From: Candidatus Marinamargulisbacteria bacterium
GTDB lineage: Bacteria > Margulisbacteria > Marinamargulisbacteria > UBA817
DNA: 64,000 bases
Reading direction: 5' to 3'
NCBI GenBank assembly: GCA_049889215.1
Contig: JBMHDV010000027.1
Location: 29,594-93,593, forward strand
Every line of letters starts with the position of its first letter. The first letter of the stretch is position 1. Under the pieces are notes generated by a model. It searched no databases, was not told where the DNA came from, and was given only the letters and a program-made list of their open reading frames with translations. Below are positions 1,484 through 48,809 of the stretch, in pieces. The position numbers and the translations under genes are program-made.

Positions 1484-4123
1484 ATGACTATGGATAACGA
1501 CGATTTACAACAAGGCGATTTATTTAATACACCAGAAGAAACCAACGAGGGGACAGCAAATGAATCAGTAGCTGAAACACCTGCAGTAGACGCCGCTGGT
1601 GATGGAGACGAGCCCATCGATAACATTAATCCAATTAATATTGATGACGAAATGAAATCATCATATTTAGAATATGCGATGTCTGTTATTGTTGGACGAG
1701 CATTACCTGATGCTCGCGATGGTTTAAAACCAGTTCACCGACGAATACTATATTCAATGTATGAGTCAGGTTACACATCATCAAAGCCATACAAAAAATG
1801 TGCACGTATTGTTGGTGACGTATTAGGACGCTATCACCCACATGGTGATACGGCAGTATACGACTCTTTGGTTCGTATGGCACAAGACTTTTCGATGAGA
1901 TATCAACTCATTGATGGCCAAGGAAACTATGGATCCATTGACGGTGATAACGCAGCGGCAATGCGATATACAGAAGCACGTATGGCAAAACTTAGTATGG
2001 AATTACTGCATGATATCGAAAAAGAAACCGTAGATTTTTCCCCAAACTTTGACGAATCATTGGATGAACCAACCGTTTTACCGTCTCGATTACCAATGTT
2101 ACTTTTAAATGGTACGTCGGGTATCGCAGTTGGAATGGCAACCAATATCCCGCCACACAACTTAACAGAAGTGATTAACGGTGTGAATTTCTACATCGAT
2201 AACCCTGAAGCTGGTGTACCTGAGCTTATGGAACACATCAAAGGGCCAGACTTTCCGACTGCTGGGATAATTTGTGGTCAGGCTGGCATCATCAGTGCAT
2301 ATGAAACTGGTCGAGGTATTATTACCCTACGTTCCAAAACCCATTTTGAAGAAAACAAAAAAAGAAAATCAATTATTGTCACAGAAATTCCTTATCAGGT
2401 GAATAAAGCAAACGTCATCATGAAGATTGCAGAGTTAGTAAATGATAAAAAGATCAATGGTATTTCTGATTTACGAGATGAATCTGATCGAAAAGGTTTA
2501 CGAATTTATATTGAATTAAAACGTGATGCTCAAGAAGAAATTATTTTAAATCAATTATTCAAACATACTCAGCTGCAAACATCATTTGGAATCAATATCG
2601 TTGCCCTTGTAAATGGACAGCCAAAAACTCTAAATTTAAAAGAGATTTTCTATCATTATGTTAACCACCGTAAAGAAATTATTAGAAAACGAACAGAATA
2701 TGATCTTAAAATCGCAAAAAACCGTTTACATATTTTAGAAGGTTTACGAATAGCACTTCAAAACATTGATGCAATTATTGAATTAATTAAAAAATCAGAA
2801 GATGCACATGTTGCTCGAAAAGCATTGATTGAAAACTATAGCTTAAGTGAAAAGCAAGCCAATGCAATCTTAGAAATGAGACTGCAACGCTTAACAGGAC
2901 TTGAGCAAGAAAAAATTGAAAATGAGTACAACGAATTAAAATTAAAAATTGCAGACCTTGAAGATATTCTTGTAAATGCACCTCGAGTACTATCCATCAT
3001 TAAAGAAGAGCATAATGAATTAAAAGATCGATTTGGAGACGAACGACGCACTGAAATCGGTGAAGATGTTAGTCAGGTAGATTTAGAAGATTTAATCCCA
3101 AAACAAACGGTAGCAATTTTACGCACAAAAAATGGATTTATTAAACGCATGCCTGTGTCCAACTTTAGAAGCCAACTTCGTGGTGGACGTGGTGTGAGTG
3201 GTATCTCTACAAGAGAAGAAGATATTATTAAACAAATTCTGGTAACGAATAGCCATGACTTCCTACTCTGTTTTACATCAACAGGAAAAGTGCACAAAAT
3301 AAAAGCTTATCAAATTCCAGAATCATCACGAACAAGTAAGGGATTATCAATAAATCATTTACTTGAATTAGATGAAAACGAAAAAATAACCAGCGTTATT
3401 CCAGTAAATACTTTTGAAACATCAACATTTCTACTTATGTGTACATCAAAAGGTGTCATTAAAAAGACAGAATTATCATCATTTAGTTACTTCAAAACAA
3501 GGGCTATTCGAGCCATTAACTTAGATGAAGGTGATGAACTATCATGGGTATTGCAATCCACGGGAGATAAAGACATTATTCTGTCTACCTCTGCTGGTAT
3601 GGTTATCCGCTTTGATGAAAAACAAGTTCGTGCAATGGGACGTACATCTCGAGGTGTTCGAGCAATAAAAATTAAACCGGATGATACATTGGTCAGTGTT
3701 AGTTTAATTGACCCAGATACCACGAAAGAATACTTATTATTATTGACCACCAAAGGATACGGTAAAAACATTCGAGTTGATGAATTCAAGGTCCAGAATA
3801 GAGGCGGTATTGGTGTTAAAGCATTAAAGTTTAGAAAAACCGTGCCAGGCGATAAAGTAACAGACGCAGAAGTTGTTGAACGTGATGACGAAGTGATTGT
3901 AGCAACATATAGTGGCAATATTTGCCGCCAAAAAGTTGCTAATATCTCCATCCAACGCAGAACATCTCAAGGCGTTAGAATCATTAAATTAGATGATAAA
4001 GACGAAGTAATTTCAATGGCTAAAGTAATTGAAGTAGACGAAGAAGAGCAACAAACTGCAGAAGCTTCAACTACACAAGTTGTTAGCTCAGCGTCAGTGT
4101 CACAGCCAGTTTCAACCAATTAA
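1484..4123 (+). CDS. gyrA: DNA gyrase subunit A
   Basis: 879-aa ORF starting 5 nt after gyrB; N-terminal [27 protein letters not shown] and active-site region [11 protein letters not shown] typical of GyrA. Confidence 0.95.
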
Positions 4124-4126
4124 AAA

Positions 4127-4145
4127 TAAAGGGGGGGACACCCTT
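4127..4145. terminator. Possible short bidirectional hairpin between convergent gyrA and yqeG-like gene
   Basis: aaggg / ccctt 5-bp stem with 7-nt loop (4128-4144) flanked by A-runs; weak. Confidence 0.25.
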
Positions 4146-4668
4146 AAAATGAACTTAATATGGAGGCTTGAAGCTTGTATTGTTGTTGCTTCAAAAAAGA
4201 GATATTCGAAACATCAATTGGATCAACATAAATTGACGACATCCCTGTGATATTCGCCAACAAAACATCAGTAAATAACTGATCGCCAATTAAAACAGCT
4301 TCACTAACATCAATGTTATAATCCTGAATTAAACGTCTCATGGTAAAAACAAATGGCTTACATGCAAATGTTACAGCAGGTAAGTTTAACTGCTTTGATA
4401 CATGTTGGATTCGATCAACACTTGAATTGTTAGAAATTAAAATAATATTATCAAAGTCATGGGTCGCAATTGCATTAAACAAATTTAATGACTGCAATGA
4501 GACAGCTGTTTCTCCATATTTTATAATTGTATTATCAACATCAAAAAATAATGACTTAATGCCATCGGCTTTTAATAATTGAAAATCAATGTCAAAAATA
4601 GACTCATAAATCAGCCTTGGCCTTAAATAATCATATAAAATAGAATTAAATCCCGTGGATTTAGTCAT
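4144..4668 (-). CDS. HAD-IIIA family phosphatase (YqeG-like)
   Basis: HAD motif I FDVDNTI; 174 aa from ATG at 4668 fits YqeG-type proteins; the longer ORF to 4713 would overlap hisG by 53 nt; ATG overlaps hisG stop (ATGACTAA). Confidence 0.7.
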   Translation of the reverse strand: MTKSTGFNSILYDYLRPRLIYESIFDIDFQLLKADGIKSLFFDVDNTIIKYGETAVSLQSLNLFNAIATHDFDNIILISNNSSVDRIQHVSKQLNLPAVTFACKPFVFTMRRLIQDYNIDVSEAVLIGDQLFTDVLLANITGMSSIYVDPIDVSNISFLKQQQYKLQASILSSF

Positions 4669-5296
4669 TAACAAACTTGGAAAAACCATCATGAATGGCC
4701 TGAACATCAGCAAATTTAGTCATCATTGAAGATCGATTAGCAACCAACCGTGCCGTAGAGTAAAAGACCTCATCATACTCAATCAAGCCATTTTCCTTTA
4801 GTGTTTGACCAGTGGCTGTTAAATCACAAATAACATCTGCGACACCAGTCATTGGAGCCAACTCCATCGCACCATATAATTTGATTGGGACACAACGAAT
4901 TGATTTTTTTTGAAAATAATCCAAAGTTGCCATCTCATATTTAGTAGCAACACGAACATTATGCGATAAATATTTAGATTGATATGATTCTGGACCAGCA
5001 ATCACCAAACGGCAATCACCAAACTTTAAATCCAATAACTCTAATAAATCAGGAGACTGTTCTTCTAATACGTCCTTACCTACCACACCCATATCTGCAG
5101 CACCTTCTTCAACGTATACAGGAACGTCCCATGGTCGTACCTTCATTAACTGAATTTTTCCAGTAGTATCAATGGTAGATAACTGTCGTGATTCTGATAA
5201 GTCATTATCAAATACAATGCCCATTCCATCAAAGAATGACATGGCCTTTTTCCATAAATACCCTTTCGCACAGGCAATTGTTAGTGGTTTAGTCAT
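4661..5296 (-). CDS. hisG: ATP phosphoribosyltransferase, short form
   Basis: Translation MTKPLTIACAKGYL...RPWDVPVYVEEGAADMGVVGKDVL...CDLTATGQTLKENGL typical of HisG; start set at MTKPLT (ORF runs to 5443 but that extension passes through hisZ). Confidence 0.85.
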   Translation of the reverse strand: MTKPLTIACAKGYLWKKAMSFFDGMGIVFDNDLSESRQLSTIDTTGKIQLMKVRPWDVPVYVEEGAADMGVVGKDVLEEQSPDLLELLDLKFGDCRLVIAGPESYQSKYLSHNVRVATKYEMATLDYFQKKSIRCVPIKLYGAMELAPMTGVADVICDLTATGQTLKENGLIEYDEVFYSTARLVANRSSMMTKFADVQAIHDGFSKFVND

Positions 5297-6119
5297 TAAG
5301 AGCCCTTTCCAAATAATGTAATCGTATAGCAAAACCAAATGCGTTTGCAGAAGAACCAAATGCAGAAAGAACAGAGTCATAACGCCCACCTGAACCGATG
5401 ACCTTTCCATATGATGGGGAAACAATATCAAAATATACACCATTATAGAATGACAAATCCTTACATAATCCTCGATTTACCTTCACATTTGATATACCAG
5501 CATCAAGAAGTCCTGACATGAATGCAGTTAAATAAGACGATTGAGGCAAATCAGTTTGATCACCAATGGCTGGTAGTTTGGCTAGTCCTTTAAAATCACC
5601 CAATCGTAAATTATCAAGTTCCTCACTCGATAAATCTGAAAACAACTCAGGATGTGCAACATGAACTTCCGCATCTTTTAAACCAACCTTCTTGCAAATA
5701 TCATGCAACATCTTAATCATATTAATTTCATCAGAAAGTGATAAATCACCAATATGCTCAACACCGAATTGAAAGATTTCAGTTTCACCCAATAATGGAT
5801 CTTTACGAAACACCGGATCATGATAAAACAACTTCACTGGCATTTCTTCAACCAACCGACTGGTTGCAATGCGAGCAATCGGGGTTGTGTGATCAGGTCG
5901 TAAAATCAACCTTGAACCCGAACGATCAAAAAACATAATGCAATGGTCACTGAGTGCTCCCAATGCGGGTTGAAGTTGGTCGTAATGTTCAATTGATGGG
6001 GTAATAATCCGCCGATATTCTTGCTGTTGAACAACATCGACCATTTTTTGAATTAATAAATCACGCTGTTCAATATCATTTGGCAAATAATCCCTTAAGC
6101 CTAATGGAATGTGTTTCAT
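5289..6119 (-). CDS. hisZ: ATP phosphoribosyltransferase regulatory subunit (HisRS-like)
   Basis: N-terminus MKHIPLGLRDYLP and HisRS-like core without anticodon-binding domain; immediately upstream of short-form hisG, which needs HisZ. Confidence 0.8.
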   Translation of the reverse strand: MKHIPLGLRDYLPNDIEQRDLLIQKMVDVVQQQEYRRIITPSIEHYDQLQPALGALSDHCIMFFDRSGSRLILRPDHTTPIARIATSRLVEEMPVKLFYHDPVFRKDPLLGETEIFQFGVEHIGDLSLSDEINMIKMLHDICKKVGLKDAEVHVAHPELFSDLSSEELDNLRLGDFKGLAKLPAIGDQTDLPQSSYLTAFMSGLLDAGISNVKVNRGLCKDLSFYNGVYFDIVSPSYGKVIGSGGRYDSVLSAFGSSANAFGFAIRLHYLERALND

Positions 6120-6157
6120 ATATTAAAGAGTATCATATGCATGAATGGTTGCAATAC

Positions 6158-8476
6158 TTACTGAACAAGTTCTTTAGTAGAAATATGTTGAAACACACTG
6201 ATAGGAAGGTTTAATACCAACTCATTAACAGATAAATGATGAAAATTTACCGGTAAAAACTGCAAAAACTCTTTGAGTAATTCGCTATAATAATCCTCTT
6301 CTTGCATCCCCATAATCTGCATTCTTGCTTGATGCACTGGTTGAGATGCATTCGGTGGTTCATAATCTGGAAAAATAATGATCCCTGATAATGAATTTAA
6401 CTTAGAAACATCTGAAAAAAGTAAAAACTGAACCTGATGAGGACGATCTTTGTATTTCTGGCGTGTAATTCGATGAAGCTTTTTCTTCCAATACCTCATC
6501 TTTTGTTTTGACAAAACTACCACATGAACAGGGGCAAAAGATAGCTTTGATTGAATAAATGAAACAATCTCATGATCCGACCTAGCCATAATTGATACAC
6601 CAGGCTGTGAAGCATCATCAAAATGTTCATCAACCAGCTTTGAACCAATCTGCCAAGTAAAAAAGTCTGTACTCGTATAAACAGCAGCTGATTGATGAAT
6701 AATCACCCGTTGAGCATAATTCATTACATTTTGGAACAATTCGGTTGGAAAAATAGACAGTTTAACCAAACTACAATTGCTAGGGCGGTACTTCAGTGGA
6801 GATGCAATAAAAAGAACATCTCGATCACTAACATCCAATAATTGCTTTAACATAAAGCCAAAAGCATTAACTTTTAAAATGATATCCCGAATCCAAACCG
6901 ACAACTGCGGCACAATATAATATGACACACGACCAAGGATTGTTGTTAACTCTGTTATATGATGTTGAATTAAGTGAATGTGACCAATAATTTCTTGCCA
7001 CTCAAAGGTTTCCTTGACATTATCATTTACGTAAACCTCTCTCTGAGAATAATAGTGATTAACAGACAAGGCACCAATAAGAGCATCAAACTGTTGTAAC
7101 ATTTGGTTTTTTTCGTAATGAATTAAATCTATAGCATGTCGAATACGTGCAATATCCTGAATAAGTTTAAGCGGATGCTCTTCCTTCCTCGTCAAAAATC
7201 TAATCACAGATGAAAACTGAATGATCATATCATTCAAAAACTTAAATGAATATGATGATATTGATTGCTTAAATAACTCAGAGAAAACACCATCATAATT
7301 AGAGAAATGATAATACACAATAGCAAACAACGAACAAAATTTAGGCAATTGCATGGAAATCTGAGAAAATGTTTCTATATGACAAGAAACCGATTGATTT
7401 GATTGAAAAGCGGCTTCAATATGCAACGCTAAAAACGTCGTCTTTTCCATAGATTTTGAATCCATCGAAGAATCATTAATTTGGTAAAATCGTTGTTTTA
7501 AACTATCATTTAAATCATTCAAATAAAATGTTTTTGTCTGACGAAGCCAACCGATAATTGCAATTATTTCAACAACTTCAGAGTGAGATGCCGCTTGCTG
7601 CATAAGCCTCGGATAAAACGAATCAATATTGGGTGGAAAGGCATAGTTTGATGGAGAGTCAATAAAAGGCATATCCAACGAATACTTCGATCGCACAATA
7701 TAAATTGTTCGTTGATCATGATCAGTAACATACGATTGTAGTTGTGAATCATCCCCCAAACATCGCGTAGCATGACGCTGCCCAATACGATCAACATCAA
7801 ACTCAGCATACCCATGATGATCCATATCACGATCATGTTGATTATCTGGGGCACCAACTGAAAAAAAACGCAATACAAAACGAATAAGATGCTGTATTGA
7901 TTTCTGCTGAGACTGTTTAAGTAGTGCCACTTCAAACGTCGATATCTTTAACGAATAATGCTTAGAAAAATAATGCATTAATTGAGCCAACCCCATAGCA
8001 TCATCCAATGCACGGTGTGACTGAGCTTGAGAAATATCAAACTGATGGAATAGCTGCTGTAGTTGCAAGCTACGGATGGTTGGATGAAACCACTTAAAAA
8101 CATCTTGAGAGTCCACCCAAATAAATGATTCAGGAACAAGGTGATAATAATCACAAACAGACATGTAACTCATTCGATCTAAAAATGCGTTATGTGCGAT
8201 AATTGTTGAGTTTTTAATAAACTTATAAAAATCTAAATATACCTCAGTAAAAAGCGGGGCTTCATCCAGTGCATCGTGATCAATACCAGTTAAATTTAAA
8301 ACAAAATCACTAACACGCGTCTCAGGTTTCACCAATGTCGAATACGTCTTACCAATCACCCCATCAATAATCTCAACACAGCCAATTTCCATGATTAAGG
8401 ATTTGCCATCCAATGGATATGTTTCAAAATCTAAAACAACGACTCGATGCATAGTATTCATCATACCGGTGAACAA
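6158..8476 (-). CDS. DEDDh (DnaQ-like) 3'-5' exonuclease domain fused to ~600-aa C-terminal region of unknown function
   Basis: Exo I VVLDFETY, Exo II IIAHNAFLDR, Exo III HRALDDAMGLAQ in first ~170 aa; no Walker A or helicase motifs seen in the remainder. Confidence 0.7.
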   Translation of the reverse strand: MFTGMMNTMHRVVVLDFETYPLDGKSLIMEIGCVEIIDGVIGKTYSTLVKPETRVSDFVLNLTGIDHDALDEAPLFTEVYLDFYKFIKNSTIIAHNAFLDRMSYMSVCDYYHLVPESFIWVDSQDVFKWFHPTIRSLQLQQLFHQFDISQAQSHRALDDAMGLAQLMHYFSKHYSLKISTFEVALLKQSQQKSIQHLIRFVLRFFSVGAPDNQHDRDMDHHGYAEFDVDRIGQRHATRCLGDDSQLQSYVTDHDQRTIYIVRSKYSLDMPFIDSPSNYAFPPNIDSFYPRLMQQAASHSEVVEIIAIIGWLRQTKTFYLNDLNDSLKQRFYQINDSSMDSKSMEKTTFLALHIEAAFQSNQSVSCHIETFSQISMQLPKFCSLFAIVYYHFSNYDGVFSELFKQSISSYSFKFLNDMIIQFSSVIRFLTRKEEHPLKLIQDIARIRHAIDLIHYEKNQMLQQFDALIGALSVNHYYSQREVYVNDNVKETFEWQEIIGHIHLIQHHITELTTILGRVSYYIVPQLSVWIRDIILKVNAFGFMLKQLLDVSDRDVLFIASPLKYRPSNCSLVKLSIFPTELFQNVMNYAQRVIIHQSAAVYTSTDFFTWQIGSKLVDEHFDDASQPGVSIMARSDHEIVSFIQSKLSFAPVHVVVLSKQKMRYWKKKLHRITRQKYKDRPHQVQFLLFSDVSKLNSLSGIIIFPDYEPPNASQPVHQARMQIMGMQEEDYYSELLKEFLQFLPVNFHHLSVNELVLNLPISVFQHISTKELVQ

Positions 8477-8493
8477 AGGATATTTAAAAATAA

Positions 8494-9342
8494 TTATTCA
8501 AGGGACTGGAAAATAGTTAAAAATCGATCATGCCCTGACAAATCTTTTTTAAACAGCAACGAGGTATTCGTTGCAGCTGTTAAGTGCTGCCGTTGTTGAT
8601 AACCAATTTCGCAAATAAGATCATGCCCCCCTTCAGTCGCTCGACCAATTAAATCTAAAATTATGGCCATACCATTATTATCTGCAACAAGTGCAACTTT
8701 TGGCTCAAGTTTCACAACATCATCTAATAAAATATACTCATCATCAGAAATATAAGGGGGATTCGAAACAATAATACAATGAGCATTGGGTGGAACATCA
8801 AAACATTCAACATCAAAAAAATCGCTATGAAAAAATTCAATATTAGCCACATCATGCCGACGTTGGTTTATACAAGCAACATCAAATGCGTGTCGGGAAA
8901 TGTCCCACGCTTTGAATGAAATATTTGGAAACTGCAATGCCAAATCTATCGAAATTACGCCAGAACCAAAACCACACTCAAAAACATGAATGTCATGGCC
9001 CTTTAGATGTTGTATTCGTTTTGCAGCAATACCAACCAGTTCTTCTGTTTCTGGACGCGGAATTAAGACACCCGGTCGAACAAAATATGGTCGACCATTA
9101 AAGTAAGCTGATTCCAAAATATAACTCAAAGGTTCACCAGCAATGCATCGATCCACACATTGTTGGATGGATGTAATCTGGGTGGATGTTAGGGTATAGT
9201 CCTTTGAAAGCAATACCAGATATTTTTCATTTAAATGTTCTTCAATAATAAATAATACAGTCACTTCTGCATCTGGTAGTTGTGCAGCAATTACTTGGTT
9301 TACCCAATATCGATACGCTTGATCAATTCGATTATTGACCAA
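8494..9342 (-). CDS. prmC: Release factor glutamine N5-methyltransferase
   Basis: SAM-binding VFECGFGSG and catalytic NPPY motif; overlaps prfA stop by 11 nt, conserved prfA-prmC pairing. Confidence 0.85.
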
Positions 9343-10396
9343 TTTGTTTTAACTTTTCAATACGATCTGCTTTTTTTAGTGCGGAAATAATTGGCTCAAT
9401 ATCGCCTTGAATAATTTTATCAAGTGCATGAAGTGTTAATCCTATTCGATGATCAGTTACACGCCCTTGCGGATAATTATACGTTCGTATTTTTTCAGAT
9501 CGATCACCACTACCTACTTGAGATTTTCTTAAATCCGATTCCTTTTTACGTTGTTCAAATACTTGCTGCTCATAAATTTTTGCGCGTAATATACGCATAG
9601 CTTTATCTTTATTTTGAAATTGTGATCGTTCATCTTGGCATGCAACAACTGTATTTGTTGGAATGTGCGTTAATCGAACAGCTGAACTTGTTTTGTTCAC
9701 GTGCTGACCACCAGCACCAGACGCTCGATATGTATCGACACGAATATCTTTCATATTAATCTCAATGTCAACATCTTCAACCTCAGGCAATACAGCTACA
9801 GTGGCAGCAGACGTGTGAATACGACCGGAGCTTTCTGTCGCTGGGACACGTTGAACACGATGAGTACCGATTTCAAACTTAAGCTCACTATAAACACCGG
9901 CACCACTAACTGTAAATGAAACTTCCTTAATGCCCCCGATTTCCGTTAAATTTTGGGAAATAACCTCTATTGTCCACCCTCTCTTTTCAGCATAGCGTTG
10001 ATACATTTTTAATAAATCTTCAGCAAAAAGCGCCGCTTCATCGCCACCCGTACCCTGACGAATCTCAACGATCGCATTACGATGATCATCCGGATCTTTC
10101 GGAATTAAAAACAATTGAAGTTCATCATCCAAATGTTTTATTTTTGCATCAAGTTCAGCAATCTCCTCTTTGGCCATATCAGCCATTTCTGCATCGACCA
10201 AAAGCTCCTCTGCATCCGCACGCTGCTGTGTAAACGATCGAAAATCACGATACATTTCAACAAACGATTTTAACTCGGTATATTTCTGTGATAGTGTTTT
10301 GTACTTTTTTTGGTCTGAAATCACTTCAGGGTCTGAGAGTTGGCGCTCAACATCCTCATACTGAAGTTCTATTTCATCATATGATGCATTCGACAT
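9332..10396 (-). CDS. prfA: Peptide chain release factor 1
   Basis: GGQ motif ([22 protein letters not shown]) and RF1-type PxT tripeptide ([12 protein letters not shown]). Confidence 0.95.
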
Positions 10397-10407
10397 TCGT
10401 CAAAAAA

Positions 10408-10644
10408 TTACTTAGAAAACTTGGCGTATTTCTTTTTGAATTTTTCAACTCTGCCTTCAGAGTCAACAATTTTATTTTCACCAGTAAAAAATGGATGGCA
10501 ATTAGCACAAATATCAACACGTACATCAGATTTTGTTGAACCTGTTTTATACTCAGCGCCACATGCACAAGAAATAACAATATCATTATGATACTCAAAT
10601 GTTATATCGAATCCTTTTTTAGCTGCTTTTTGATTTTTACTCAT
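10408..10644 (-). CDS. rpmE: 50S ribosomal protein L31 (zinc-binding type)
   Basis: 78 aa with CxC...CxxCHPFFTG signature of L31. Confidence 0.9.
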
Positions 10645-10779
10645 AATATCTTATGAAATTAAGAGAGTTTAGCTTATTTGTCAATGCGTTTAATAAAACT
10701 TTGATGAAAATACTAACCCACATTTATATAAAAATTACGGCATTAACTCTAAAATTTGTTTAAAAATTAAAATCAAATG

Positions 10780-10788
10780 TGCTATATT
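10780..10788 (+). promoter_or_regulatory. Possible extended -10 element (TGcTATATT) only ~10 nt upstream of the anti-sigma ATG; leaderless or near-leaderless transcript possible
   Basis: tgtgctatatt at 10778-10788; ATG at 10799; no Shine-Dalgarno visible. Confidence 0.25.
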
Positions 10789-10798
10789 ATGAATAATT

Positions 10799-11254
10799 AT
10801 GTTACTTGAACGATTGAATGGTCAGCCTGAAAATGTAGAGTTTAGTATTCCTTGCATGTCCGATTATGTAGGTGTCGTTAGATTGGCAGTATCTGGTCTA
10901 GCAACTCGAATGAATTTTTCTATAGAAGAAATTGAAGATATTAAAATAGCTGTTTCCGAAGCTTGTACAAATTCAGTGCAATATGCATTTGATGACCCAT
11001 CTGAGCAACGTGTATTCATTACCTTTAATTTATTTAAAGATAAACTCGAAATTATTGTGAAAGATCATGGCAAAGGGTTTGAAGTTGAAACACTCGAAAG
11101 AACCCCTATTGAAGAACGTAAATTAGATGAGATTGATGAAAATGTCCCACGTCTTGGCCTGGGAATTACATTCATCAAAAGTTTAATGGATGAAACCAAC
11201 ATCACCTCACAAATTGGTGGTGGAACAACCATTCAAATGGCAAAACATATTTAA
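10799..11254 (+). CDS. Anti-sigma factor / Ser-protein kinase of the RsbW/SpoIIAB family (HATPase_c)
   Basis: N-box-like EACTNSVQYA, G1 box VKDHGKGF, G2 box GLGITFIKSLMDE, GGGTTI near C-terminus. Confidence 0.75.
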   Translation: MLLERLNGQPENVEFSIPCMSDYVGVVRLAVSGLATRMNFSIEEIEDIKIAVSEACTNSVQYAFDDPSEQRVFITFNLFKDKLEIIVKDHGKGFEVETLERTPIEERKLDEIDENVPRLGLGITFIKSLMDETNITSQIGGGTTIQMAKHI

Positions 11255-11260
11255 TAACCA

Positions 11261-11548
11261 TTGCTTAAGTTAATATTTATTTTTTTTATGTCCGTATCCT
11301 TCTACGTGTTTTACCAACGCAAATTATCACGCGTCTTGAAGCCGGGGTTTGTAACACCCATATCAGCAATTCTAACTCTAGTTTCATTAGCACCAATGGG
11401 ATTTATAGTTGGATTAATTAGCGTATACGCCATACCAAAACTATTAACAAAACAATCCAGTATGCATTCAATGATTTGCGCTAAATGTGGTACCCTATCC
11501 AAAAAGGGGGAATCCATATGCAGAAAGTGCAAAAACATGCTGTCCTAA
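11261..11548 (+). CDS. Small membrane protein with C-terminal zinc-ribbon (CxxC...CxxC)
   Basis: Two hydrophobic helices then CAKCG...CRKCKN; TTG start at 11261 or ATG ~11288; overlaps start of next gene by ~30 nt. Confidence 0.35.
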   Translation: MLKLIFIFFMSVSFYVFYQRKLSRVLKPGFVTPISAILTLVSLAPMGFIVGLISVYAIPKLLTKQSSMHSMICAKCGTLSKKGESICRKCKNMLS

Positions 11549-12780
11549 CAGACAATAATCAACCATTACCATATTCAGTTGAACAAATTAAATTGGTAAA
11601 ACAAAAATTAAACACAAAGCAAGAGACCGAAGTTCTTTATAATCAAACGCCAAAAAGTACGGCACCGTATTTACCAATATTCATTTTAACTTCAATAAAC
11701 CAACAATATTATGAGATAGAAATTAACCCATCAGAATCATACCGAATCACATGCAACCCATGGAAAGATGAAAACTTATTAAATCATCAGAAATTGATTA
11801 CGGTTTGTCCGACGCTTTTCATTTCATATTTAGCAAATCATCATCCAACAAATGCATGCATTGGGGCATTAAATATTCTGGCTACAATAATCGATCATTA
11901 TAATATTTCCGATCTTCATTTTATAAAATCAACCGTTATTTTTAAACAAAACCAACAAGAAAGATTCCGTTTAATTTTTGCTGAAACAGACATGAAGAAA
12001 CTGCGCTACTATTTAAAACTCCATGCTCATATGGATCCATCCAACACACAACAACCCCAAGATGGGTCCTTGTCGTTTAAATTTGAACATATTCAATTAG
12101 ATCTTAGAGTTGCCACTCTACCAACAAGAAATGAAGAAATGCTTTCTATCCGAGCTTTTAATCTGAAAAATAAAATAAAATCTTTAGCTGAATTAGGGTT
12201 TAACAGTAAAAAAGCCGCAGCAATTACACAAATGATTAAAAATAAAAACGGGTTAATCTTAATAACAGGCGCAACAGGTGCAGGAAAATCTACCACACTA
12301 TACGCACTATTAAAATTACTTAAAAAACGCCATGTTATTACAATTGAAGATCCCATTGAACAACCGCTCACAGATATTCATCAAACCAACATTAATAATA
12401 AAAAAGGTTATACATTGGATGTGGGTCTCAAAGCAATTTTACGACATAATCCGGATATCATAGCCATTGGTGAAATTCGTGATGCAAAAACTGCTGATAT
12501 TGTGTTGCAAGCAGCATATTCTGGGCACCTAGTGATCGCATCACTTCATACAAATTCAATAGAAGCAACATTGCTCAGATTACAAAGTTTAGGATGTTCA
12601 CCTTTTTTAATCAGTTATTGCTTACGAGGAATCATTGCACAAGACCTAATCAGTTCAGCAAACAATAACGTTAAACTGGTAAGCAGTATTCTATTATGTC
12701 AATCACCGTTTATAATAACTGACTTAAAAAAAGAATTAACGACTTTCATAAAACATAATACACTGCTTCATAATGATTGA
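11518..12780 (+). CDS. GspE/PilB/PilT-family secretion ATPase (ComGA-like), orphan
   Basis: Walker A GATGAGKST, Asp box VITIEDPIE, Walker B IIAIGEIRD, His box LVIASLHTNS; start set at ATG 11518 with AAGGGGG SD; N-terminal ~230 aa unassigned. Confidence 0.8.
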   Translation: MQKVQKHAVLTDNNQPLPYSVEQIKLVKQKLNTKQETEVLYNQTPKSTAPYLPIFILTSINQQYYEIEINPSESYRITCNPWKDENLLNHQKLITVCPTLFISYLANHHPTNACIGALNILATIIDHYNISDLHFIKSTVIFKQNQQERFRLIFAETDMKKLRYYLKLHAHMDPSNTQQPQDGSLSFKFEHIQLDLRVATLPTRNEEMLSIRAFNLKNKIKSLAELGFNSKKAAAITQMIKNKNGLILITGATGAGKSTTLYALLKLLKKRHVITIEDPIEQPLTDIHQTNINNKKGYTLDVGLKAILRHNPDIIAIGEIRDAKTADIVLQAAYSGHLVIASLHTNSIEATLLRLQSLGCSPFLISYCLRGIIAQDLISSANNNVKLVSSILLCQSPFIITDLKKELTTFIKHNTLLHND

Positions 12781-42209: not shown

Positions 42210-42470
42210 ATGTCAGACATTGGCCCTATCTCTGCCGATCTCCCATCTCTTGCAGAAGAGGTAATAAATTCACCTGACACAATTTCGACAACTTGTCGCG
42301 CATGTGTTGAGTCATCATCATCGGTTGATGAACTTAGCGATAAACTAAAGATACTTGAAGAAAGCATAGGAAACAGCTCGCCAGCAACAATTCAAATGAT
42401 CAATGAAATCAAAACAATGATTGAATCAGATACGAGTTTATCAGAAATCCAATCCAAACTGTCCAGTTAA
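42210..42470 (+). CDS. Small Ser-rich hypothetical protein
   Basis: 86-aa ORF immediately following previous ORF. Confidence 0.3.
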   Translation: MSDIGPISADLPSLAEEVINSPDTISTTCRACVESSSSVDELSDKLKILEESIGNSSPATIQMINEIKTMIESDTSLSEIQSKLSS

Positions 42471-44122
42471 AATGTTTGAGACACATTGAAGTGAACCATA
42501 AGCTCATCATTTCCAAAACCAAAATCCAATCGTAAAGGTATCACAGACTCTAACAATCGAACACCAAATCCGTACCCTCGATACAATTGATCAAACAATT
42601 GATTGAATTCATCATTTATAAATCCACCATCTAAAAATAAAACTCCAGCAATATTTTGTGATAATCGTTGCCTTAATTCAAAATTAAAAGATAAACGATA
42701 GTTTCCAAGAAAAGAAAACTCATTGTATCCTCTCAGTGAATTTGCGCCACCTAACGAAAACCGCTCAGTTTCAAATGTTGATTCTTGGCCTAATTTTTTA
42801 TATCTACCCCCAAAAAGTTGAACTGCAAATGTCGATTGATTAAGCGTATAAAAGTAAGCATTTGTTAGACGAAACCGATGAAATGAAATCCCACCTAAAT
42901 CAATAAGTCCCAAGTTGCCTCCAATATCATAATTCAATGCAATTCGATGCCCAAATGTGGGATATTGAAAATGATCAACTTTGTTTTGATCCAATAAAAA
43001 AGAGATGGATCGTGTGGTATAGCCAGAAAAGTCACCGTCATCTTGCGGAACTACAGTCTCATTGCGTAAGGTGGTGGCAATTGCCAAATATTGACGCTTA
43101 ATTTGATGCATGAACGACACTGCACCACCTGAACGAATAGTTTTATAAATAGTTAAATCCTCTTGATAAACTTCAGAAAGAAATCTTTTGTAAAAACTAA
43201 TGTCAAATGAAACTGGAAAAGAATTAAATAACCAAGGTTGATTATATCGAAATTTATACGCTCGAGTCTCTACATTGTTTAAATAACCCAACTGGAATTG
43301 CAACTCTATAAAATCTGTGTAAATAAACCGGTTGTACCACTTAAGCTTAGAAAATAGAGCCACACCTTTATCATCTTCCAATTCCTCTAAACCAATATCC
43401 AACATATTTTGCTTTCGCTCCCTTATCTGATACGCTAATCGAACATTATCCGATGAAACCATCTCAATGGTTGGTCCGTTGACACTACTAAAGTTTGACA
43501 ATTGCGATAATGATTCAAGATCAATATCTAAAATTCGCCGATTGAGCTGATCACCGTTTGATAACAAAAGTTCACGATAAATAACCCAAGACGGGGTTGT
43601 ATCCAATCCCATAACGACAATCTCACTGATTGTAGGTGACTCAATCATAATCGTCATTGTTCCAGCATCAGAAACCGAAATTGATTTAACGGATGCGGTA
43701 ATATATCCCCAATCAACCAATTGTTTATTAATTGCAGCAACATCATCTTTTAAATATTTAAAGTTTAAATAGTCACCAGATGTATGAGCCATCACCATCG
43801 TCAGTTGACGCATTGGAATTGGAGAACCAACAACATGAATTTTTGTTATCACCGGGTTATACTGAATATTAACAACTAACCGACTACCTCGCTTCTTCTT
43901 ATCAAATTGAAATGTTATGGATTGATATACACCATTCTGTCGAATTTGATTTAAAAAAGCTTCAACTTGCTGCTCAGATGAAATCACCCCATTAAACCGA
44001 GAATTTATCTTTGAAATCAAAAACTGATCATCTGTCCCAGTCACAGCAACCGACTGAATAAAGGCCGAATGAGCAGCAGTAGAAAAATAAATAAATAAAA
44101 AGATATTAAAAAGAATACGCAT
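42467..44122 (-). CDS. Omp85-family outer membrane protein (BamA/TamA-like)
   Basis: Signal peptide, POTRA-like N-terminal region, C-terminal beta-barrel ending in aromatic residue (NVSQTF). Confidence 0.75.
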   Translation of the reverse strand: MRILFNIFLFIYFSTAAHSAFIQSVAVTGTDDQFLISKINSRFNGVISSEQQVEAFLNQIRQNGVYQSITFQFDKKKRGSRLVVNIQYNPVITKIHVVGSPIPMRQLTMVMAHTSGDYLNFKYLKDDVAAINKQLVDWGYITASVKSISVSDAGTMTIMIESPTISEIVVMGLDTTPSWVIYRELLLSNGDQLNRRILDIDLESLSQLSNFSSVNGPTIEMVSSDNVRLAYQIRERKQNMLDIGLEELEDDKGVALFSKLKWYNRFIYTDFIELQFQLGYLNNVETRAYKFRYNQPWLFNSFPVSFDISFYKRFLSEVYQEDLTIYKTIRSGGAVSFMHQIKRQYLAIATTLRNETVVPQDDGDFSGYTTRSISFLLDQNKVDHFQYPTFGHRIALNYDIGGNLGLIDLGGISFHRFRLTNAYFYTLNQSTFAVQLFGGRYKKLGQESTFETERFSLGGANSLRGYNEFSFLGNYRLSFNFELRQRLSQNIAGVLFLDGGFINDEFNQLFDQLYRGYGFGVRLLESVIPLRLDFGFGNDELMVHFNVSQTF

Positions 44123-47100
44123 AACTTAACGACCACCTCGGATCAAACACCGTTACCTCTGAATACTCATTTGCATTCTTCAAACTCACTGAAAAATTGG
44201 GTTGAAAATAATACGTAACATCAACTCGAGTCAACTTTACACCTCTAGCATTTTCATTAACATAGTCTGTTGATAAATTTAGATCCGAGCGTAATGTTAA
44301 AAACAATTTCTCTTTATATAGATTTGATACAGTTTGAATACCAAATAAATCCTCATTAATTTTGCTATCTGAATCTGAACTAAGAATTGTTCGGCCAAAG
44401 TCATAATTTAACCTTAAATCATAAAGACCAACCCGCTTTGCAAAACGCCGCTCATACGGTCGTAATGAACTTCGGATAAATGTATTAATACGATCTCGTC
44501 CATAATTAGTGAAATCCGTCTCCTCTGAATTAGAAATAATTTTGGGTAGTAATAGATTAAGGCCGTAATAGCTAGCTTGCGAACCACTAACATCTGTTTG
44601 CATTAAATCAACATCATACGTCCCATAAAGCTCATATTCTGGAAACGTCAAAAAAGCATTATTTAACCCAAAATCAAAAACAGTCACCTTAGCCGCTGTA
44701 CCCGACAAATCTCCATTAATCGATAACCCAATGGCATCATAAGGCAACGTATCATTTCGAACATTTTTTGAAGACACTTGAGTATCTATTTTTCGTAGCG
44801 CCCTTAAATTCAACGCCACCATCATTTGCTGAAAACCGTCATCTTGAATCGGAGATAGATCCACACGCTGATCTGTGACATACTCCGGGACATCTTTAAA
44901 AAAATGGTTTTGTTGTGACTTTGGCATTAACTCATAAACACCATCAAAAATAGAAATAGATCCATCATAAAAATATAAACTTGTCGTAAATTGAGGGGAA
45001 TTAATTGAACCGGATATTTGAAAGGGGGCTGAGCGATTCTTTTCATCCAATTCCAGAAAAATGTTATTAGCAAATCTAAAAATGCCATCACCTACCAAAC
45101 TTCCTTGTATATAGTTCCCAGAACCAAGTGTTGTTGTTAAATCCAATAAAATTCTAGGCTTTGTTTTATTTTTAGTACGCTTTGGCAAATTAAAAATACC
45201 GTCTCGAAAAATAAGGCTTCCAGACAATTGAGGTCCGGATTCATTGGCCTTACCAAGGCTATACTTAATGTTTTCCAAAGCGTTTTTTTCCCAATAAAGC
45301 GTCTGGTCCCCCTGAAATTTGATTTGGTTTGCAAGAACGTCACCAGAAAAAAAGACAGGAAAGTTCATCGAAAAAAATGTGTCTTTCATTGTTAGGTTAT
45401 AGGCAACTTTGGCTTTCTTTTTCATTAAATCGATAGGACCTAAGTCAATATCTCCAGAAATATTAAACTCATTTTTCTTGTTTTCCCGAGTGACTCGTCT
45501 AAAGGTATGGTCTCCTTGCCATATAACATTTAATACATCCAGACTTAGCACAGATGAATCAACACGATAACGATATCTTGGAACTTGAATGACAGATGAT
45601 TGCCCATCATTAGAGGACACTACCCTTAATTCAAAATCATTAAAATCAACATCCAATGAACGAACGGACAAATTATGAATTGGACCAACAAATTTCCACT
45701 TCACATACCCAGTATTATAAAGACTTTCAATATATGCTGAGGCACCTGAAAAAATATTTAATGACGCATCAGAAAATTCAAATCCCATATCCAACCATTT
45801 ATCTTTATAGTTATATTCACCAAGAAGAAAACCGTTATAGTTTTTACCCAAATATTGCATTAACGAATTCGTAATCTCATGAGTGTTTTTCTCCTTATTA
45901 TACGACAAATCTATTGCAAGAGATTCAACTTCGACCTTATTGAACACCAACTGATCAACATAAAAGTTATAATTTTCAATAGAGTCAGTTATATCTTTTG
46001 ACTTTAATTGCATCAAATCGGCCTGGACCATTTGCATGTAATCAAAATCCGTTAAAATAATATCAATTTTGTTTTTGCCTAAATCACGATTATTAATCGA
46101 TAAATACCCACTAAGTAATCCTTTAATTTTATTGTCAGCCAATGCTTTTTTCTGATATTGAGAGTAAAATTGCATAAAGCTTTGAAGGTTATCATGCTGA
46201 TATTTGTGATAATCAAATGCTTCATTGAAAAAAAACTCATTTTCTTGTGATTGCATTGTAAAATCATCAAGTTTTTTAATTATTGTGTAATAAATATCAG
46301 ACACAGTATTTAAATTTAGATTGGCTGCCTTCATGTTCAAATCATAAAATGAATAAAATGTATCAGAAGATGCGGTTTTAGAGAAATCTATAGAGCCATT
46401 TGCCAAAAATCGTCCTCGATTTAATTGAACTTGAAACTGATCAAAAGTTAGCGTATCGCCCAATTTTTTACCATCAAATAAAAGATACTGGATTGGAATG
46501 CCATCCAATTCCAAATCCATGGACTCTACTAAACCATCAAAATTTAAATCTGATAGATCCCCAAAAAAACGCCCCTTTACACTAACATCACCCAATAATT
46601 TCTGACGCGAAAAAAAGTCCAAAGCATCCAATCTAAAAAAACCTTTCTTCTTTTGCGTAACATCGAATGCCCCTTTTGAGCTTAATGAACCAGCTAAATC
46701 TAACTCATGAAGCCCACTAAGACGACATTGATTAATGGTAATTTCCCCGCCATTCGTCTCAACTTCTAAAAATACATCACCAAGTTGACCATATTGTAGC
46801 TTAAACCCCTGAATATTTAATTTTGATTTAAAGTTTAGCTCTGATGCGTGATCATACAATAAATAACCAGTAGCAACACCGCCAAAGGATCCAAATAACT
46901 GAGAATTAGTAAGTTTCGGCAATAACATTAAGTCAAACTGATCAAAATTTAAATCCAAAAGAATCGGTTTTTTCTGGTATAACTTAACCTCACCACTTAA
47001 CTTAGTTGTCCCATACACTAAATCATTAATTTTAAATTTATGGCGCTGATTATCAAATTGATAACCTAAATCGAAAGCGTCAAATCGTTGATTATTGTAG

Positions 47101-48809
47101 GCAATGCCACGCCCTTTTAGCTGACTTTCAAACACCCCATTAAAGCCCTGCTCTGACCAAGAAACCTCACCTTTAGATTCCATTTCTTCCAAATAATACG
47201 CCTGCTGATCTGGCTGAGCTAGTTGCCCAAGGCCTGACTGATTAAACGATAAACCAGCTGAACTTAACTTTCCCGAAAACTCAAGGGCTTGGCCATTCGA
47301 CAAATAAACACTAAAAACAGGCAATTTCAACACTTGTTTTTCCTGCCTCAAAATAGCTTTTATTTTTTTTATTGTAATTCCATAAAAAGTTAAATTTAAT
47401 TGATCAAGATTAAATTCGGTTTGATTGTTTTTAGAGTCTGAGGCAAGATAAATATTTGCTGTCACTTCTGAATTAAGTACAGGAACAAAAAGAGGTAATC
47501 CTGCCAATTCAATATGATAATCATTCTTATAAATATTACCCGATACCTCATAAGATGATGATGACAAAGAGGTGAGATACCCTGGTTGACCGTCTTTTGC
47601 CACCAACTTTAAATTTACCGGATCGATATTAATCAGCTTGGATTTAATTTCACTTGTTTTAAGATAAGTGGTAAAAGTTGGGCGTTGAAACAAACCCGTC
47701 AATTTAACCATAACTGATGCATCAAAATCTAAATCAGTTGGTGGCGCTAACTTTAAATATGAAAACACATCTTCTGGTTGAATGACACCGTCAGATGCCA
47801 TCGATAAATTAAACCGTCGGTTATAAAAAGAAATGTCCCCAGAAACATTAAACGGAACATCATGAATCATTGCCCGAATGTTTTTTAATATTAAGGAAGC
47901 TTCATTATGATTTGAAAAAACAACCTGACCAGATACATTTTTCAAAGGCACCTTAAATCGAGCTGGATTAATGGATAAATAATCAAAATTAATAGCAATA
48001 TTATAGAAAAACCTCTTTTTAATTGCTTTATTTGAATTGCTCTTTATTTGACCTGAAATCTGTAAAAAGTCATCAGAAATATTAACTTTTGAAAATGGGA
48101 CTAAATATGATGCCCAGTCATCCGTCACTAATGAAACAGCTTTAAAATCATACAAGTATTCAGTCCCCTGAATTTCACCCTGAATTGAACTTCGATCAGC
48201 AGATCCAGCAATAGAAAAATCAAAATCTAGCTTCACCTTTCTTGATGAATCAAATGCAATTGTCCCTTGCCCACTTGAAAAGGAAGACGAAAACTCCTGG
48301 GCGACTTTTCCCCAACCTCTAACATCCGTATACGTACCAGATATGTCGTTAAATTGAATTGTTAATCGTGATGGAGATGCCCCGCTCTCACCACTTTTCG
48401 AAGATAATGCTTTAACAAACTCAATGATATTAACTTTTTTTGATTCTAAGCGATTAACATTTAACAGAACCCCGTTAACATTTACTTTACCAATAATATC
48501 CGACAGACCATTGGTGATGAACCGCAATGACGGATAAATCGTAACTAAATCAGCTTTAATAAAATACGTTTGGTTCTTTACAGGTGCTTGACTGTAAATC
48601 ACTACATCTTTTAAAACAATTCCAGAAAACAAGTTTCCCGATAATTGTCTAAAATCGATAGGCCTAGCCAAAGCACGCTCAATACTTTTTTCTAAATTAT
48701 CTTTCGCTATTTTATTAATAAAAGGAACTTTTAACGCGTATCCTGATACCAAAGAAAAAACTAAAAATACAAAAGCAAAAAAAGTAGTCAGCCGAAACAA
48801 TCGTTTCAT
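44106..48809 (-). CDS. TamB/AsmA-like giant translocation-and-assembly protein
   Basis: 1567 aa, N-terminal signal-anchor, beta-rich repetitive body, C-terminal DUF490-like segment; directly upstream of Omp85 gene with 17-nt overlap. Confidence 0.7.
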   Translation of the reverse strand: MKRLFRLTTFFAFVFLVFSLVSGYALKVPFINKIAKDNLEKSIERALARPIDFRQLSGNLFSGIVLKDVVIYSQAPVKNQTYFIKADLVTIYPSLRFITNGLSDIIGKVNVNGVLLNVNRLESKKVNIIEFVKALSSKSGESGASPSRLTIQFNDISGTYTDVRGWGKVAQEFSSSFSSGQGTIAFDSSRKVKLDFDFSIAGSADRSSIQGEIQGTEYLYDFKAVSLVTDDWASYLVPFSKVNISDDFLQISGQIKSNSNKAIKKRFFYNIAINFDYLSINPARFKVPLKNVSGQVVFSNHNEASLILKNIRAMIHDVPFNVSGDISFYNRRFNLSMASDGVIQPEDVFSYLKLAPPTDLDFDASVMVKLTGLFQRPTFTTYLKTSEIKSKLINIDPVNLKLVAKDGQPGYLTSLSSSSYEVSGNIYKNDYHIELAGLPLFVPVLNSEVTANIYLASDSKNNQTEFNLDQLNLTFYGITIKKIKAILRQEKQVLKLPVFSVYLSNGQALEFSGKLSSAGLSFNQSGLGQLAQPDQQAYYLEEMESKGEVSWSEQGFNGVFESQLKGRGIAYNNQRFDAFDLGYQFDNQRHKFKINDLVYGTTKLSGEVKLYQKKPILLDLNFDQFDLMLLPKLTNSQLFGSFGGVATGYLLYDHASELNFKSKLNIQGFKLQYGQLGDVFLEVETNGGEITINQCRLSGLHELDLAGSLSSKGAFDVTQKKKGFFRLDALDFFSRQKLLGDVSVKGRFFGDLSDLNFDGLVESMDLELDGIPIQYLLFDGKKLGDTLTFDQFQVQLNRGRFLANGSIDFSKTASSDTFYSFYDLNMKAANLNLNTVSDIYYTIIKKLDDFTMQSQENEFFFNEAFDYHKYQHDNLQSFMQFYSQYQKKALADNKIKGLLSGYLSINNRDLGKNKIDIILTDFDYMQMVQADLMQLKSKDITDSIENYNFYVDQLVFNKVEVESLAIDLSYNKEKNTHEITNSLMQYLGKNYNGFLLGEYNYKDKWLDMGFEFSDASLNIFSGASAYIESLYNTGYVKWKFVGPIHNLSVRSLDVDFNDFELRVVSSNDGQSSVIQVPRYRYRVDSSVLSLDVLNVIWQGDHTFRRVTRENKKNEFNISGDIDLGPIDLMKKKAKVAYNLTMKDTFFSMNFPVFFSGDVLANQIKFQGDQTLYWEKNALENIKYSLGKANESGPQLSGSLIFRDGIFNLPKRTKNKTKPRILLDLTTTLGSGNYIQGSLVGDGIFRFANNIFLELDEKNRSAPFQISGSINSPQFTTSLYFYDGSISIFDGVYELMPKSQQNHFFKDVPEYVTDQRVDLSPIQDDGFQQMMVALNLRALRKIDTQVSSKNVRNDTLPYDAIGLSINGDLSGTAAKVTVFDFGLNNAFLTFPEYELYGTYDVDLMQTDVSGSQASYYGLNLLLPKIISNSEETDFTNYGRDRINTFIRSSLRPYERRFAKRVGLYDLRLNYDFGRTILSSDSDSKINEDLFGIQTVSNLYKEKLFLTLRSDLNLSTDYVNENARGVKLTRVDVTYYFQPNFSVSLKNANEYSEVTVFDPRWSLSYAYSF

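Follow-up and report, generated by a model that had tools for sequence, protein, structure and literature searches.

The gene and its annotation

The window analyzed here is a stretch of 64,000 nucleotides (nt) from a Candidatus Marinamargulisbacteria bacterium, and its minus strand carries, between hisZ and prmC, a gene in which a DnaQ-like (DEDDh) 3'-5' exonuclease domain is followed by about 600 amino acids (aa). We identify this gene with high confidence as the Marinamargulisbacteria ortholog of ExoDinG, the DEDDh exonuclease fused to a superfamily 2 (SF2) helicase of the XPD/DinG family that is called 'dinG' in the Bacillales. ExoDinG has been proposed to act in crosslink repair, in the removal of R-loops, and in rRNA quality control, and the relevance of its helicase to its nuclease is debated. 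A preliminary description of the locus had reported an open reading frame (ORF) with three DnaQ-type exonuclease motifs, predicted to encode an active nuclease, in a housekeeping context, and had noted the absence of Walker A, DEAH, and polymerase motifs from a C-terminal region that it regarded as uncharacterised. The ORF, its motifs, its same-strand neighbours, and these absences are all borne out below. The C-terminal region, in contrast, proves to be a degenerate helicase.

The ORF is real and comprises 772 codons (772 aa) when read from the TTG at 8476, where the longest version begins. The ATG at 8452, which is M9 of the listed ORF, gives a product of 764 aa and is probably the true start, since the identical protein at NCBI has 764 aa and all homologs begin with M-x-R-x-V-V-L-D-F-E-T. 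Residue numbers of the window protein follow the 772-aa numbering throughout. The NCBI protein (P0001), which comes from a Candidatus Marinamargulisbacteria metagenome-assembled genome, is named 'PolC-type DNA polymerase III', and homologs at JGI carry the name 'DNA polymerase III epsilon subunit'. Both names mirror the nuclease domain only and are misleading; the public annotation as a PolC-type polymerase is corrected here.

An intact exonuclease domain

RNase_T (PF00929) is the sole Pfam domain in the window protein (aa 13-166, E-value [E] 6e-24). Its residues D16, E18, H95, D100, H154, and D159 align one-to-one with D10, E12, H90, D95, H149, and D154 of Staphylococcus aureus DinG, for which the roles of the catalytic residues have been described (PMC12345164), and the six positions are invariant or nearly so across 17 homologs. 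At the level of sequence the protein thus has the N-terminal DEDDh domain, with its D, E, D, H, and D residues, that is a feature of ExoDinG, and the nuclease is predicted to be active. The motif strings first given for it need one correction: the catalytic Asp of Exo motif II is in place, but the motif reads H-N-A-F-L-D and not literally H-N-A-x-F-D. The domain scores about equally against PolC/epsilon and DinG models (NCBIfam PolC, E 1e-24; exonuclease of Thermotoga maritima PolC, E 1e-14). Matches of the NCBIfam models for DnaQ-DinG, PolC, and epsilon are all confined to the first part of the protein and stay far under their whole-protein cut-offs, the DnaQ-DinG model reaching 90 bits against a cut-off of 547.7.

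A degenerate DinG helicase behind the exonuclease

Beyond the nuclease domain, sequence-profile libraries overlook this family entirely. Pfam, NCBIfam, and PADLOC give nothing consistent for the window protein's C-terminal part or that of any family member, none of 12 family members has a Pfam match in this region, and a family profile of it finds no match at E<=10 among all PDB sequences. The fold is more informative. An AlphaFold2 (AF2) model built from an alignment of 17 family sequences is confident (mean pLDDT 85.7, pTM 0.82), with weak segments only at aa 1-8, 214-222, and 767-772. Its best Foldseek match in the PDB is S. aureus ExoDinG over the full length (9ii8_A, E 1.6e-27, TMq 0.65, about 900 alignment columns; 8zef_A, E 7.9e-27), followed by Escherichia coli DinG (6fwr, E 1.9e-13) and by XPD, CasDinG, and Rad3/TFIIH at E 1e-12 to 1e-8. 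As predicted by the model, the orientation of the nuclease on the DinG body also resembles that in S. aureus DinG.

Profile-profile alignment agrees. With hhalign, the family aligns to 22 canonical DnaQ-DinG proteins with a probability of 99.95 (E 1e-37, 703 columns), and with the nuclease domains removed from both sides the values are 97.7% (local, E 2e-12, 438 columns) and 98.8% (global). The C-terminal profile, searched exhaustively with HMMER against 1.84 billion cluster representatives, retrieved 33 proteins, which are the family with its fragments, one distant member (P0029), and a single outsider, P0049 (E 3e-4). This outsider is a canonical DnaQ-DinG of 915 aa that has Helicase_C_2, DEAD, and ResIII domains together with Walker A, DEAH, and motif VI; its two nearest relatives are P0050 and P0051, and its close relatives P0052, P0063, P0071, and P0081 are annotated as Candidatus Margulisiibacteriota. 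The C-terminal profile scores highest on the clade of P0049 and P0056 (36-19 bits), whereas its score on Bacillus-type ExoDinG is close to zero. BLASTP of the window protein against P0056, a motif-complete ExoDinG, gives 35% identity in the nuclease domain (E 1e-19) and 20% identity over 348 aa in the region of the pseudo-iron-sulfur (pseudo-FeS, pFeS) and Arch domains (E 1e-7).

The C-terminal region of about 600 aa is therefore a degenerate DinG/XPD-family helicase, as follows from the fold match, the profile-profile homology, and the positional orthology with a motif-complete ExoDinG described below. It has the four-domain XPD/DinG fold, with motor domain 1 (MD1), pFeS, Arch, and motor domain 2 (MD2), C-terminal to the nuclease. 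A high-confidence match to a degenerate DinG helicase is the very outcome that the preliminary description had named as speaking against its view.

The pFeS domain holds the best-conserved signature of the family outside the nuclease, SH.E.VE...I..WLRQT.TF....LN..L..R, in which E300, E303, W310, L326, and R329 are invariant; the signature is common to canonical ExoDinG (W..T.TGD.SEL). The four conserved cysteines of FeS-cluster helicases are absent, as no cysteine is invariant or nearly invariant in aa 284-334, and the domain is therefore a pseudo-FeS domain as in the Bacillales ExoDinG. The only conserved cysteines of the family are C108 in the exonuclease and C365 in MD1. The Arch domain bears a conserved ET.EWQE motif with the invariant W493.

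Loss of the helicase motor

A regular-expression scan found Walker A, DEAH, and motif VI (Q..GR..R) in none of the 18 family members, the window protein included. With patterns loosened for known variants, all but three of 120 canonical ExoDinGs match every motif; the exceptions are P0087 and P0113, whose S-P-T-G variant of Walker A lies outside the pattern, and P0076, which is unmatched for motif V. Judged by sequence, the family thus lacks the SF2 motifs I (GxGKS/T), II (DEAH), and VI (QGxGRxxR) that belong to ExoDinG.

The state of each motif was read from a column-by-column hhalign map of the family against canonical ExoDinG. The G-T-G-K-S loop of motif I (around aa 247-251) and the L-Q-x-Q of motif Ia are deleted. 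Motif II (D-E-A-H) aligns to N/H...F-N, and motif III (S-A-T) falls on variable positions, the former motif now reading V-H-Q-P/S. In the MD2-like part motif IV is also lost, and motifs V (S-F-W-E-G-x-D) and VI (Q-G-x-G-R-x-x-R) correspond to variable positions. The final ~30 residues of MD2 are missing, the C-terminus ending before the D.R....Y contacts of canonical ExoDinG to single-stranded DNA (ssDNA). Some canonical positions survive, namely Y278 (the Tyr of K-G-x-x-N-Y), W..T.T....(D/E)L in the pFeS domain (W310, T314, D321), a C-H in place of N-H before the motif II strand, and, from motif Va, the terminal P-x-x-x-A-R (P713, R718).

The ssDNA contacts of S. aureus DinG (PMC12345164), numbered through HMMER alignments, were mapped on hhalign columns of low identity and are indicative only. 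On this map K336 and K338 become D/A/S and P in the family, K801 becomes E/D, F804 becomes variable, F823 is usually F but is L in the window protein, and R858 and Y864 fall within the deleted tail. The comparison suggests that the canonical ssDNA track was eroded along with the motor.

Synteny and a probable single loss

On its own strand, the gene has prmC upstream at a distance of 17-41 nt and hisZ downstream at 38 nt. With the exception of one inverted lineage, the family loci have the order rpmE-prfA-prmC-[gene]-hisZ-hisG-HAD phosphatase, with gyrA-gyrB convergent, and on the other side an anti-sigma kinase, a T2SSE ATPase, Sua5, and a glycosyltransferase. In the lineage of P0015 (loci L006, 4100..10976, and L007) the block hisZ-hisG-HAD-gyrA-gyrB is inverted, so that gyrB-gyrA directly follows the gene, and prfA-prmC-[gene] is intact; because of this inversion the stable linkage is the one to prmC and not to hisZ. 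A promoter and terminator scan of positions 4000..11000 did no better than on shuffled sequences, and an operon is suggested only by the short intergenic gaps and the conserved order.

A related genome has a comparable locus, L014 (GCA_018700055.1). Here the order is prfA-prmC-[X]-hisZ-hisG-HAD, followed by rpmE, STAS, anti-sigma kinase, T2SSE, and Sua5, and X is P0056, an ExoDinG of 924 aa with AGTGIGKS, VVIFDEAH, and QGIGRLIR. Between the window and L014 the flanking genes are 41-62% identical by BLASTP (prfA 62%, hisZ 41%). The window gene is the positional ortholog of this canonical ExoDinG, and its common descent with ExoDinG follows from the shared genomic slot, the identity of the flanking genes, and the preference of the C-terminal profile for the clade of P0049 and P0056. 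In MAFFT alignments prfA is 72-86% identical among the genomes with a dead helicase and 57-60% identical to that of L014, which is therefore an outgroup, and the parsimonious interpretation of these sequences is that the motifs were lost once, on the clade's stem.

Canonical ExoDinG occurs elsewhere in the phylum. In a non-marine Margulisiibacteriota genome (L009, 6001..11574) a radical-SAM gene and an FTCD gene separate it from hisZ-hisG downstream, and in another Margulisiibacteriota genome (L008) it follows dnaA-dnaN-recF-dciA. The neighbourhood of dinG and hisZ therefore predates the loss of the motifs, yet is not universal. A scan of GTDB genomes with a single peptide pattern gave three loci, all in Margulisiibacteriota/UBP8, which confirms the taxon and is not a census.

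The block of an SpoIIAB/RsbW-like anti-sigma kinase (HATPase_c_2), an ORF of ~100 aa, and a T2SSE-family ATPase lies near rpmE-prfA in most genomes examined (L001, L003, L004, L014), with dead and live helicases alike. The ~100-aa ORF is not called in L003 or L004, L014 has an extra STAS anti-anti-sigma gene, and in L006 and L007 a tetratricopeptide repeat (TPR) protein stands in place of the block.

Selection on the helicase part

The dead helicase part is still under purifying selection. The ratio of nonsynonymous to synonymous substitution rates (dN/dS), taken from the single close pair L003 and L011 (87% identity, dS 0.46), is 0.05 in the nuclease and 0.157 over the C-terminal part as a whole, with 0.081 in the Arch domain and 0.184 in MD2. 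Synteny and length are kept in every locus examined; the family proteins span 742-771 aa and are free of frameshifts throughout a clade in which prfA identity goes down to 72%. Since the family and canonical sets differ in taxonomic breadth, mean pairwise identities per region are to be compared only as ranks within each set: in the family they are 0.60 for the exonuclease, 0.52 for pFeS, 0.40 for Arch, 0.35 for MD1, and 0.28 for MD2, the least conserved region, and in canonical ExoDinG 0.39 for the exonuclease, 0.15 for Arch, 0.40 for MD1, and 0.43 for MD2, pFeS having no separate value there. The conservation ranking is thus inverted relative to canonical ExoDinG, having moved from the motor domains to pFeS and Arch. 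The preserved length, the low dN/dS, and this inversion together argue that the dead helicase part retains a function.

Proposed function and alternative readings

The gene, in our view, quite probably encodes a motor-dead ExoDinG ortholog of the Marinamargulisbacteria that works as an ATP-independent exonuclease on a helicase scaffold. On the stem of the lineage the motor would have been inactivated by deletion of the Walker A loop, replacement of DEAH and of motifs III, V, and VI, and trimming of the C-terminal end of MD2, while the DinG fold with all four of its domains and the active site of the nuclease were retained throughout. The product would be a 3'-5' exonuclease that depends on metal but not on ATP and attacks free 3' ends of single strands; candidate substrates are ssDNA at forks that have stalled or been damaged, the RNA strand in R-loops, and unprocessed rRNA. 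By analogy, such activity of the window protein is likely, because published work indicates that the nuclease of ExoDinG does not need the motor: the E465A variant of Listeria DinG retains 3'-5' exonuclease activity (PMC12774634), and the ATPase of Bacillus subtilis DinG neither stimulates nor inhibits ssDNA degradation (PMC12525004). S. aureus DinG halts at duplex regions in the absence of ATP (PMC12345164), and an exonuclease without a motor should halt there as well. The dead helicase body may serve as a static scaffold in which the conserved pFeS and Arch surfaces, in place of a translocating motor, choose the substrate, present it, or bind a partner, although for this scaffold or gating role we would put the chances at somewhat less than even.

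Several points weigh against this proposal. In S. aureus, crosslink repair depends on helicase and nuclease activity together (PMC12345164), and this role therefore cannot simply be inherited by the dead-helicase family. The erosion of the canonical ssDNA track suggests that the scaffold may not bind ssDNA there. The dN/dS values come from one close pair only, and the family evolves fast, with 25-45% protein identity in a clade whose prfA is 72-86% identical.

An unlikely alternative that takes the conservation of the accessory domains further is that the dead helicase was repurposed, with selection now on pFeS and Arch instead of the motor and these two domains as a new recognition module that targets the exonuclease to a specific RNA or protein partner, which would make the protein a pseudoenzyme-guided RNase and not a DNA-repair enzyme. 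Immature rRNA or the translation machinery could be the target, as would fit the invariant linkage to rpmE-prfA-prmC and the reported part of Listeria DinG in rRNA quality control. The live ortholog in L014 has the same linkage, however, and the linkage is therefore uninformative on the dead form.

It is very unlikely that the helicase part is a decaying relic without a function of its own, on its way to deletion, and that only the exonuclease matters. The loss of all motor motifs and most known DNA contacts, the weak conservation of MD2 (28% mean identity), and a length ~150 aa below that of canonical ExoDinG could all be read in this way. Against decay stand the dN/dS of the C-terminal part and especially of Arch, the full length without frameshifts throughout the clade, the confident AF2 folding of the region, and the conservation of pFeS (52%) and Arch (40%), which exceeds that in canonical ExoDinG, where Arch reaches 15%. 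A decaying pseudogene was rejected on the dN/dS and the clade-wide retention.

The similar scores of the exonuclease domain against PolC/epsilon and DinG models, and the presence of gyrB/gyrA near the gene in all loci, would fit a replicative proofreading subunit or a fragment of a PolC-type polymerase, a reading to which we give a still smaller chance. The NCBIfam PolC matches span the exonuclease segment only (positions 424-602 of 1445; 86 bits against a cut-off of 873), neither Pfam nor NCBIfam finds a PHP, palm, or fingers domain, and the rest of the protein has the DinG fold and is orthologous to ExoDinG. PolC or epsilon identity was thus rejected on domain content, in line with the initial view that the protein is not a PolC fragment.

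Highly improbable, too, is a helicase that still runs as a motor by binding nucleotide through non-canonical residues. In the model both motor domains keep their RecA-like folds, but the P-loop is deleted and not substituted, and none of the 18 members has the motif II acidic residues or the motif VI arginine finger; SF2 helicases are not known to function without these elements. The idea that a DnaQ exonuclease is here joined to a new, non-helicase domain made up of the C-terminal 600 aa, for which the silence of Pfam, NCBIfam, PADLOC, and PDB-sequence searches even with a family profile might speak, can practically be dismissed, as fold search, profile-profile alignment, BLAST to P0056, and positional orthology all point to a DinG helicase body.

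A role in anti-phage defence, CasDinG-like or Cas-DEDDh-like, was also considered and was rejected because of where the gene lies and what PADLOC returned. In all loci it sits in a conserved housekeeping block, with no defence-island or CRISPR setting, and PADLOC gave only a generic DEDDh domain match and none in the C-terminal part.

Features and other genes in the window

The positions of the features are collected in Table 1. The listed hisG ORF (260 aa) overlaps the 3' end of hisZ by ~150 nt; in homologous loci hisG has 211-212 aa and overlaps hisZ by a few bases, and translation of hisG probably begins at an internal Met. GyrA has an acidic N-terminal extension of ~45 aa ahead of the start of the conserved GyrA N-terminal domain. 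Further along, an ORF of 1567 aa without a Pfam match at E<=1e-5 lies directly upstream of a gene for an Omp85/POTRA outer-membrane protein, and the two may form a TamB/TamA-like pair that has diverged beyond the reach of Pfam. A STAND-type ATPase gene is followed by two ORFs without a Pfam match, in a cluster of very large genes.

Table 1. Positions in the window of the domains and motifs of the ExoDinG ortholog and of other genes discussed in the text.
Feature	Position	Strand	Residues	Remarks
Helicase-dead ExoDinG ortholog, coding sequence	6158..8452	(-)		764 aa from ATG 8452
ORF as listed	6158..8476	(-)		
DEDDh (DnaQ-like) 3'-5' exonuclease domain	7958..8449	(-)	10-173	
Exo I	8423..8431	(-)	D16/E18	
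Exo II	8177..8194	(-)	H95-D100	
Exo III	8000..8017	(-)	H154-D159	
Segment between exonuclease and MD1	7775..7957	(-)		Helices, short strands; low-confidence loop aa 214-222; bounds approximate
MD1-like RecA fold with inserted pseudo-FeS	7256..7774	(-)	235-407	Bounds approximate; from hhalign motif map, regex scan, fold match
Pseudo-FeS domain	7475..7627	(-)	284-334	
Former DEAH strand	7292..7318	(-)	387-395	Now VYYHFSNYD
Arch domain	6821..7255	(-)	408-552	Long helices; bounds approximate
Last strands of MD1 and MD2-like RecA fold	6161..6820	(-)	553-772	
Motif Va remnant	6320..6382	(-)	699-719	IIFPDYEPPNASQPVHQAR
prmC	8494..9342	(-)		
hisZ	5289..6119	(-)		
hisG ORF as listed	4661..5443	(-)		
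gyrA	1484..4123	(+)		
Anti-sigma kinase, ~100-aa ORF, T2SSE-family ATPase	10799..12780	(+)		
Omp85/POTRA outer-membrane protein	42467..44122	(-)		
1567-aa ORF	44106..48809	(-)		
AAA_16/STAND-type ATPase	53277..56765	(+)		1162 aa
341-aa ORF	57341..58366	(+)		
1550-aa ORF	58366..63018	(+)		

Relation to known DinG-like proteins

The closest known relatives are the ExoDinGs, that is, S. aureus DinG (8ZEF/9II8) and the DinG proteins of B. subtilis and Listeria monocytogenes. They share with the window family the order of DEDDh exonuclease, linker, MD1 with pFeS, Arch, and MD2, the six identical residues of the nuclease active site, the best full-length structural match, and a motif-complete member in the same genomic slot. 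The window family differs from them in the loss or deletion of motifs I, Ia, II, III, V, and VI and of most mapped ssDNA contacts, in its ~150 aa shorter length, and in the shift of conservation from the motor domains to pFeS and Arch. E. coli DinG, archaeal and eukaryotic XPD (Rad3), and CasDinG are active 5'-3' helicases, most of them with a 4Fe-4S cluster and none with an exonuclease domain, whereas the window protein has neither the cluster cysteines nor the motor motifs. Compared with the polymerase III epsilon subunit (DnaQ) and the PolC exonuclease, it lacks the polymerase domains and the epsilon-type C-terminal tail and has a DinG body instead.

A review of DinG-like proteins lists ExoDinG, pExoDinG, and sDinG, the last possibly not an ATPase and without a nuclease, among others (PMC11981726). 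The pExoDinG proteins, for example that of Caulobacter, are likewise two-module DinG fusions in which one module is inactivated and the fold is kept, but they are the mirror image of the window family: their nuclease is dead and their helicase alive. The sDinG proteins are likewise DinG-like with incomplete-looking ATP- and DNA-binding sites, but they have no exonuclease, FeS, or pFeS domain and a compact Arch, whereas the window family keeps the exonuclease, pFeS, and a full Arch. An ExoDinG class with a live nuclease and a dead helicase is not in this review (PMC11981726), a literature search of incomplete coverage found no description of one, and the list of ExoDinG lineages in PMC12345164 does not include Margulisbacteria. 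The dead-helicase family descends from ExoDinG and shares its architecture but fails its enzymatic definition in the helicase motifs, and it is an unusual variant rather than a new domain or system. ExoDinG is widespread and its biology unsettled, and the lineage amounts to a natural separation-of-function experiment across a whole clade of an uncultured phylum. The loss of the motor with retention of the nuclease, pFeS, and Arch argues that at least one conserved function of ExoDinG needs neither ATP hydrolysis nor translocation, and the retention of pFeS and Arch under purifying selection argues that these accessory domains have a role of their own.

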